Origin: Octopus sinensis
Lineage: Eukaryota
DNA: 64,000 bases
Assembly (NCBI RefSeq): GCF_006345805.1
Contig: NC_043000.1
Coordinates: 162,688,001-162,752,000, forward strand
Direction of reading: 5' to 3'
Position numbers and translations under genes: made by a program
In this document: positions 6,272 through 7,117 of the stretch, piece after piece
How the letters are laid out: each line of letters opens with the position of its first letter
Position numbering within the stretch: position 1 is the first letter of the stretch
Notes under the pieces: model-generated
What the model saw: the letters and a program-made list of their open reading frames with translations, nothing else
Told to the model about the DNA's origin: nothing
Databases searched by the model: none

Positions 6272-6309
<38 letters not shown>

Positions 6310-6515
6310 CAATGATAAATATCAAAGTGAGTTATATACAGTAGCGGTAACACATCGTGACGTATTTTTGCCATTTCAATATGGCTAACCCCTAAGGGTG
6401 GATGCTACTGTAGTTTTTAGCCCCAGGAGGACACACTCCTCCAGCTGGCCATAGACACACTTTCTGTGTCCTGTCAGTATTTGCAAATGGAAGTCATCCT
6501 TCCCGTCTTCAACTT

Positions 6516-6574
6516 ATGATACACACGGACTCGAGTTTCGAGGTATTGACCTCTCGTCAGCGTGTGACAATCAT
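6516..6574 (-). ncRNA. Type I hammerhead ribozyme (minus-strand copy)
   Basis: Reverse complement of the 6862-6920 motif. Confidence 0.85.
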
Positions 6575-6861
6575 AGTTGTCGGCGAGAATTAGATTTCCT
6601 TCACAAATACTTATACTTTTTCCAGCGTCCACTGTCGCTGATATTGAAAAAGTGAAATCAAACAATGATAAATATCAAAGTGAGTTATATACAGTAGCGG
6701 TAACACATCGTGACGTATTTTTGCCATTTCAATATGGCTAACCCCTATCAACTCACTTAGATATTTATCATTGTTTGATTTCACTTTTTCAATATCAGCG
6801 ACAGTGGACGCTGGAAAAAGTATAAGTATTTGTGAAGGAAATCTAATTCTCGCCGACAACT

Positions 6862-6920
6862 ATGATTGTCACACGCTGACGAGAGGTCAATACCTCGAAA
6901 CTCGAGTCCGTGTGTATCAT
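6862..6920 (+). ncRNA. Type I hammerhead ribozyme
   Basis: Stem I CACACG/CGTGTG (extended by ATGAT/ATCAT); core CTGACGA; stem II GAGGT-CAAT-ACCTC; GAAA; minimal stem III AC-TCGA-GT; GUC cleavage triplet at 6906-6908. Confidence 0.88.
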
Positions 6921-7076
6921 AAGTTGAAGACGGGAAGGATGACTTCCCTTTGCAAATACTGACAGGACACAGAAAGTGTGTCTATGGCCAGCTGGAGGAG
7001 TGTGTCCTCCTGGGGCTAAAAACTACAGTAGCATCCACCCTTAGGGGTTAGCCATATTGAAATGGCAAAAATACGT

Positions 7077-7117
<41 letters not shown>

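Follow-up and report, generated by a model that had tools for sequence, protein, structure and literature searches.

The window, i.e. the whole stretch of 64,000 nucleotides of Octopus sinensis DNA that was analysed, contains at positions 6308-7079 a short element made of two inverted arms, each carrying a hammerhead ribozyme, which lies between two runs of (TA)n. Such a locus raises the question of the type of mobile element to which it belongs and of the machinery responsible for its insertion. Very probably, a 353-nt hammerhead unit, non-coding, cyclic and repeated in the genome, was recently inserted here; it is likely a non-LTR retrozyme of octopus, which the RT/GIY-YIG protein of a Penelope-like element (PLE) would copy in trans into a (TA)n run.

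The features of the element, and those of a coding PLE from the same window that serves for comparison, are collected in Table 1. Aligned over 6354-6686 and 6750-7082, the inverted arms share 330 identities out of 333 positions. One of the mismatched pairs, 6356/7080, falls beyond the real end of the right arm, so that the inverted arm is restricted to 330 bp with two differences, 6488/6948 and 6677/6759, corresponding to one private change per arm. The long arm has its sense on the minus strand and its 3' end, at 6308, is located 220 nt downstream of the ribozyme cut. The phase given to the unit is fixed by the end of the present insertion alone, the unit itself being cyclic. The flanks outside both (TA)n-bordered arms are unique and no further copy of the unit occurs elsewhere in the 64-kb window. 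With respect to coding capacity, the longest stop-to-stop frame within the element reaches 82 aa, a tblastn comparison with 151 proteins (150 PLE relatives and P0001) gave one match at chance level (E 0.003), and the element lacks the open reading frame combining RT and GIY-YIG that characterizes an autonomous PLE. A bacterial promoter scan returned chance numbers of hits, under a model irrelevant to the octopus host. The description given by the initial annotation, namely a 353-bp unit with an 87-bp partial tandem, a 330-bp inverted arm with about two differences, (TA)n at both ends and no credible ORF, is borne out in all these respects.

Table 1. Coordinates of the hammerhead element and of the neighbouring coding PLE in the window.
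Feature	Position	Strand	Remarks
Left (TA)n run, target microsatellite	6274..6307		adjoins the 3' (sense) end of the long arm
Long arm	6308..6747	-	440 nt = 353-bp unit + 87 bp = 1.25 turns of the cyclic 353-nt unit
49-nt tail	6308..6356	-	left end only
One 353-nt unit	6308..6660	-	42% GC; cyclic
Partial tandem repeat	6308-6394 = 6661-6747		87 nt, 100% identical, spacing 353
Type I hammerhead, long arm	6522..6566	-	predicted cut 6528
87-nt partial tandem copy	6661..6747	-	5' quarter-turn of the long arm
Head-to-head inversion junction	6746..6750		2 bases (6748-6749) between the aligned arms
Inverted arm	6750..7079	+	330 nt, sense on plus strand; 3' end 7079 = 6710/6357
Type I hammerhead, inverted arm	6870..6914	+	predicted cut after C6908
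Right (TA)n run	7080..7114		adjoins the right end of the element
Broken coding PLE, comparison element	43325..48576	-	Hydra-type motifs, TA-rich flanks
Partial tandem of the neighbouring PLE	43325-44324 / 46957-47959		1003 bp, 99.4% identical (pseudo-LTRs)
Inverted arm of the neighbouring PLE	47958-48576		629 bp

The (TA)n run occupied by the element directly follows a stretch (5078-6271) that comprises a degenerate mariner-like element (approximately 5550-6160, read from translations) between two 109-bp LINE-like fragments, 5406-5514 and 6163-6271, inverted and 87% complementary to each other. The window further contains a tRNA-Ser(GGA) call at 2341-2418 (+) and a match to the U6 snRNA at 34498-34603 (+), with 111.5 bits. 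For a 90-aa fragment of a retroelement frame near the element, one protein match was obtained, assigned to Octopus sinensis, with 97% identity over 64% of the query; this single hit makes an Octopus host likely.

The hammerheads of both arms were recognized by the Rfam model Hammerhead_1 (RF00163), aligned over its full length (1-45) with a score of 32.2 bits each (E-values of 2.3e-5 when 3.5 kb were searched and of 2.8e-6 for 431 bp). This score is 1.8 bits short of the curated gathering cut-off of 34 bits, which accounts for the absence of both hammerheads from the window scan performed at the gathering threshold. A custom descriptor applied to both strands of the 64 kb retrieved these two sites only. 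The ribozymes point outwards, on the minus strand in the long arm and on the plus strand in the inverted arm. In the latter, helix I (6870-75/6909-14), the core CUGACGA (6876-82), helix II (6883-87/6892-96), the GAAA box (6897-6900), the palindrome (6900-6907) and the GUC cut site ending at C6908 succeed one another, and all the attributes of type I are present: a CUGANGA core, GAAA, an NUH cut site and helices I/II/III in the type I order. Both the intact type I hammerhead (CUGACGA / GAAA / GUC) announced in each arm and the cut position predicted at C6908 (mirror 6528), at the end of GUC, were thus placed correctly by the initial annotation, and the Infernal search that it had advised finds them, albeit below the cut-off. 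Its qualification of the hammerhead as minimal, with a palindromic stem III, holds for the palindrome but not for the build. The minimal hammerhead of PLE (min-HHR) possesses a helix II of 7-8 bp, a helix I of 4-5 bp and little or no helix III, as described in PMC4209133, whereas the octopus motif displays a helix I of 6 bp, a helix II of 4-5 bp and a helix III of 2 bp with a palindromic loop. Judged from the length of its helices, the octopus hammerhead belongs to the canonical metazoan retrozyme type and departs from the PLE minimal type.

According to the energy model, the most stable structure of two co-folded copies of the ribozyme is a double hammerhead at -33.9 kcal/mol, to be compared with 2 x -14.5 kcal/mol for two misfolded monomers, and a single copy prefers the misfold at -14.5 kcal/mol over the catalytic fold at -8.7 kcal/mol. 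Self-cleavage is therefore predicted to depend on a dimer, the working mode that the initial annotation had anticipated and that is retained here at the level of the predicted fold. For comparison, PMC7761336 credits most type I hammerheads of invertebrates with the capacity for a stable helix III, and one out of nine predicted retrozyme dimers of Xenopus was cleaved in vitro (bioRxiv 10.64898/2026.07.22.740005).

The search for the ribozyme was extended to viral and metagenome contigs. The exact 26-nt pattern has no match in either set; a degenerate pattern gave none in the viral contigs and 26 loci in the metagenome contigs. No blastn alignment (E up to 1e-3) links any of these loci to the unit, and they consequently represent unrelated hammerheads or chance occurrences; they show, as a sequence pattern, that the same palindrome recurs outside the octopus unit. 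One of them, L001, a contig of 1275 bp, contains a 662-bp exact repeat with type I hammerhead-like motifs bearing the same palindrome at 273-304 and 935-966, and no frame above 87 aa, and is a candidate for an unrelated retrozyme-like element or circular RNA. Others form a dispersed hammerhead family in marine-type metagenome contigs (L002-L005, L007, L009-L012, L014, L016, L018, L020-L024 and L026), 17 loci of which come from one data set and 1 from another. In this family, L005 and L026 exhibit direct repeats of 174 and 229 bp around units of 1.1 and 1.4 kb, and L026, devoid of any long frame, is possibly another non-coding element of PLE style.

The octopus unit itself belongs to a very abundant family. 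Between 0.76 and 0.95 of the sampled words are contained in 20 of the 24 sequencing runs listed, which originate from 12 studies and 10 organism codes, one of these 20 runs being possibly the source of the window's own DNA. The listing names no RNA run among those containing the words, which carries no information on expression. Contigs from four of the 24 runs were aligned to 6395-6785, two of them DNA-like (X3 and X2) and two with a guessed RNA label (X5 and X9). Fitting contigs amount to 3085 in X3 and 2354 in X2, and to 30 and 5 in the two guessed-RNA runs, which disposes of the possibility of a single-copy unit. In X3 the summed depth, which is no copy number, ranges from 2.5e5 to 1.5e6 over the unit, against 26-31 in the two bins beyond, and by rough inference the copies of the unit number thousands to tens of thousands. 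The depth does not drop across the unit junction 6660/6661 (434,742 / 406,472 in X3; 384,511 / 468,098 in X2) and no loose end occurs at this junction among the 22 listed of 285. In addition, a contig of 383 nt (X9 record 25) covers the whole 353-nt unit with 3 differences and continues into its own start. A closed loop in a 31-mer assembly graph gives the unit plus 30 nt, here 353 + 30 = 383. Such a loop contig is compatible with a circle, a tandem array or permuted insertions and is no proof of a circular RNA; similarly, no tandem array of at least two ribozyme units was seen in the contigs, which cannot separate arrays from circularly permuted single insertions. Taken together, the undiminished depth at the junction and the loop contig point to a cyclic unit which, as far as the contigs show, is more than the terminal part of a coding element. 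In its size (353 nt), GC content (42%), cyclic nature and high copy number, the unit corresponds to the non-coding hammerhead unit of retrozyme size that had been proposed initially.

These data bear directly on another reading of the locus, in which the unit would be the pseudo-LTR of an autonomous coding PLE and the element a doubly 5'-truncated insertion, with no independent non-coding family behind it. Truncated PLEs of Schistosoma do show opposite-strand hammerhead pairs 100-700 bp apart, as reported in PMC4209133; the layout and the TA target of the octopus element are PLE-like, and the distance from the cut to the 3' end, 220 nt, nearly equals that of the neighbouring coding PLE, 226 nt. 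Moreover, the evidence from loose ends being drawn from 22 listed of 285, a rarer coding parent sharing the unit is conceivable. Against this reading, each of the arms contains the junction between the 3' end and the 5' start of the unit, all four runs show it at full family depth, and the 383-nt contig closes the unit. No coding remnant occurs in the element, and its ribozyme has the helix lengths of canonical retrozymes and not the long helix II seen in the motif of the neighbouring PLE. At the level accessible to the contigs, the cyclic junction at full depth makes this origin, already mentioned as an objection in the initial annotation, unlikely.

The insertion itself offers the main clue to the machinery that moved the retrozyme-like unit. 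According to PMC8557442, partial tandems are the form taken by PLE insertions, many of which also comprise a 5'-truncated copy in inverted orientation and a tail of 30-40 bp at one end, and the Hydra-clade PLEs insert in (TA)n. The octopus element combines all of these traits, i.e. a partial tandem, an inverted 5'-truncated arm, a one-sided tail (49 bp here, longer than the reported 30-40 bp) and a (TA)n target. In addition, loose ends at 6710 are followed by a TA-rich continuation in 19 contigs of X3 and 29 of X2; since 6710 corresponds to the right-arm end 7079, the latter is a family-wide end site. By analogy with the described insertions, the combination of a tandem and an inverted arm, with its one-sided tail and its (TA)n target, represents a PLE insertion footprint; the initial annotation had left the mobilising machinery open.

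About 36 kb from the retrozyme, the neighbouring PLE repeats this layout of partial tandem, inverted arm and (TA)n. Its frames are collinear with full-length relatives and display DKT, CxCx5C-like and YRDD motifs together with a C-terminal GIY-YIG-like motif, a combination that PMC8557442 describes as the Hydra signature. It also contains a hammerhead-like motif with a long helix II and a palindromic helix III, read by eye at approximately 43545-43630, 47175-47265 and 48425-48510, on which Rfam gave no score. Pfam found no match in six pieces of this PLE and a weak GIY-YIG match (E 0.012) in one of four full-length relatives. Although the pseudo-LTRs share 99.4% identity, numerous breaks interrupt the frame, and most differences of the inverted arm are single-base gaps, a pattern that may reflect errors of the assembly or a dead copy mobilised in trans. 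As a direct parent of the retrozyme the neighbouring PLE was rejected: aligned to its pseudo-LTR, the unit scores 26, and 46 of 100 shuffles score as high. As far as their sequences can tell, this PLE, the single one compared, is an analogue whose parentage is not supported.

The footprint also weighs against a hammerhead-bearing satellite or SINE-like repeat, spread by the LINE machinery or by amplification at the DNA level, in which the inversion would result from twin priming or later repair. LINEs are indeed abundant in the window, one of them fairly intact, with a 682-aa frame at 58055-60103 (-) containing an APE endonuclease and a reverse transcriptase (Pfam PF03372, PF14529 and PF00078; GC 46-49%), and no sequence link from the unit to a PLE was found. 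On the other hand, the element is devoid of a poly(A) tail, of a visible target duplication and of any tRNA match, and its arm of more than one unit, its tail at one end and the internal end that it shares with other copies at (TA)n fit the descriptions of PLEs, which renders an origin of this kind very improbable.

Finally, the inverted arm could be artificial, a simple 1.25-unit insertion having folded back during library preparation or assembly. The arms are 99.4% identical and no contig shown matches the exact junction, one X3 contig (depth 30.7) crossing 6748 but lacking 7 letters. However, the fold-back would end 49 bp short of the left end and leave the flank uncopied, both flanks are unique, each arm has its private change, the right end coincides with the family-wide end site and a second element of the window has the same layout. 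The artefact that the initial annotation had feared is accordingly judged implausible, and a true inversion carries by far the greater weight.

Accepting a PLE as the agent that inserted the retrozyme, a sequence of events can be proposed. Source arrays located elsewhere would be transcribed as multimers, and paired hammerheads would cut these multimers into 353-nt monomers that may be ligated to circles; the cutting of monomers and their circularisation are known for the retrozymes of coral, mussel and axolotl (PMC7229834). The PLE protein would then nick both strands of a (TA)n run and initiate reverse transcription at two internal positions of the RNA, separated by 49 nt and lying respectively 171 and 220 nt downstream of the cut, and the two opposite-strand cDNAs would grow towards each other and be joined head to head. 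The two-strand, two-site initiation agrees with PMC11167929, where the PLE protein is reported to nick and extend both target strands from two nearby start sites inside the RNA, and where the tail is the stretch between these two internal sites. The same paper reports that ribozyme cleavage is dispensable for insertion in vitro, uncleaved RNA being the main substrate. Since both arms cross the intact cut site and one of them comprises 1.25 units, the template would be a circle or an uncleaved multimer, unless a template jump occurred, and a single cut monomer read once is ruled out. In view of the preference of PLE for uncleaved RNA in vitro, circle and multimer are held to be about equally probable. 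By analogy, the partner is likely to be a (TA)n-targeting PLE such as those of the Hydra clade; the one PLE pseudo-LTR compared to the unit yielded no autonomous partner sharing sequence with it. A further idea placed the right-arm end within a small hairpin loop, following the example of the Anolis element; such a hairpin occurs in the fold of the whole circle and is absent from the local fold, and the idea was abandoned.

The predicted RNA and its variants provide an additional view of the family. Folded as a circle, the monomer reaches -116.9 kcal/mol (z -7.9), and none of 60 shuffles is as stable. Among the 35 variants listed, only one touches the core CUGANGA/GAAA/U, at the free N position 6556 (CUGACGA to CUGAUGA); a change of the cut-site C to A (C17) is found in a single contig in X3 and in X5. 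A G-C pair of helix II appears to be replaced by A-U through changes at 6553 and 6540 with equal depth (16) in X5. Another change in helix II, 6540 G>T together with 6541 A>G, seems to disrupt the pairing, no partner at 6552 being among the variants listed. On the sense strand, predicted pairs are disrupted by 7 of the 35 listed variants, where 13.0 would be expected (P 0.006, a value that overstates the support, the variants being linked in subfamilies), and on the other strand by 13 of the 35, with 17.0 expected (P 0.08). There is thus moderate support, on the basis of the predicted fold, for selection on the RNA.

A transcript of the whole locus is predicted to fold into one 330-bp hairpin of -655 kcal/mol, and the ribozymes being on opposite strands, any transcript would contain a single sense ribozyme inside this hairpin, which leaves the locus unable to provide either a monomer or a cis dimer. 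The monomer of about 353 nt that the initial annotation foresaw for the family is therefore not expected from the present locus, as far as folding predictions go. The present locus is predicted to be a dead end, an offspring copy rather than a source array.

As regards age, a clock in which a distance of 0.09 corresponds to 25 My (PMC13282606) places the insertion at roughly 1 My (0.1-3 My) from 2 differences in 330 bp, either of which may be an error of the reverse transcriptase or of the assembly. In X3, the 3085 contigs are distributed among identity bands of 99+% (534), 95-99% (856), 90-95% (1163) and below 90% (532), and other alleles (variants 6450, 6469 and 6473) make up about 65% of the depth at 6450-6473, which indicates that the family holds subfamilies of different ages. 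The epithet very young initially given to the element suits the present insertion and its subfamily and not the whole family, whose contig identities extend from 99+% down to below 90%. A 2-3-fold fall of depth at 6530-6550 at first suggested truncation at the ribozyme cut; this cause was rejected, other subfamilies accounting for the step, and no pile-up of contig ends is listed near the cut. A contig of 351 nt (X9 record 29) and several loose ends at 6504-6508 in X2, X3 and X9 point to sister families, which share part of the unit and a variant ribozyme end and are possibly retrozyme subfamilies of other lengths.

The loop contig with 3 differences out of 353 belongs to another organism code, and 10 codes contain at least 0.76 of the sampled words, although closely related species, or samples of a single species complex under wrong labels, may lie behind these codes. 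It is a doubtful, rather speculative idea that the family exists as a viroid-like circular 353-nt RNA, rolling-copied by the RT of a (TA)n-targeting PLE and kept near-identical across octopus species by the movement of the RNA or of its helper between them.

Compared to the systems described to date, the element agrees with the metazoan non-LTR retrozymes in all features open to testing, and qualifies neither as an autonomous PLE nor as a carrier of the PLE minimal hammerhead. As in the retrozymes presented in PMC7229834, the unit is non-coding, falls within 150-450 nt with a GC content below 50%, contains one canonical type I hammerhead with a short palindromic helix III, and occurs as a cyclic, high-copy repeat with a strongly self-paired predicted circle; the sizes given there are 350-390 bp for Mytilus, 330/350 bp for axolotl and 220-240 bp for Acropora. 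It differs in that the octopus copy, instead of forming a head-to-tail array, is dispersed and consists of a 1.25-unit insertion bearing an inverted arm and a tail on one side, and in that a circular RNA is a prediction for the octopus unit. It is also a cephalopod copy, and the main text of that paper, in the part available, contains no mention of 'octop' or 'cephalopod'.

The proposal that retrozymes are PLE dependants was made in PMC7229834 and in bioRxiv 10.64898/2026.07.22.740005. The latter, devoted to vertebrate retrozymes, reaches the same conclusion on the grounds of co-occurrence and of homology between pseudo-LTRs, in a set of 35 genomes that includes no mollusc; the octopus case is based on insertion anatomy, and the main text of the preprint describes no tails or inverted insertions. 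Unlike the vertebrate retrozymes, the octopus unit has no homologous pseudo-LTR among the sequences compared. With Hydra-clade and other EN+ PLEs (PMC8557442; PMC11167929) it shares the partial tandem, the inverted 5'-truncated arm, the one-end tail and the (TA)n target and, as described in PMC8557442, the position of the hammerhead upstream of the 3' end, but it possesses no RT or GIY-YIG frame, measures 353 nt instead of about 3 kb, has a tail of 49 bp and bears no sequence similarity to its Hydra-type neighbour. Similarly, MRC1 of Chlamydomonas and the non-autonomous Chlamys elements are non-coding PLE dependants with pseudo-LTRs and head-to-tail insertions (PMC8557442); according to the passages available, however, the Chlamys elements are algal, most of them without canonical hammerheads, and have their 3' sequence in common with the autonomous partner.

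No published cephalopod retrozyme was found in a search from which most subscription papers, Repbase and Dfam fell outside, nor was a published retrozyme with a tail and an inverted arm, again with most subscription papers outside the search; the main text of a 2026 repeat annotation of Octopus vulgaris contains no mention of ribozymes. The octopus element is accordingly a known kind of system, animal retrozymes and their proposed link with PLEs being already in print, and the new part is the footprint evidence for mobilisation by a PLE.

In this respect, retrozymes appear to extend to the cephalopods, as a very abundant family. A purely non-coding retrozyme with a whole PLE insertion footprint, located beside a coding PLE of the same layout, represents another type of evidence for the proposed dependence of retrozymes on PLEs. 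With its two mappable end sites and a concrete RNA with predicted start sites, the octopus family offers a handle on the priming of PLEs and on the choice between circle and uncleaved multimer.
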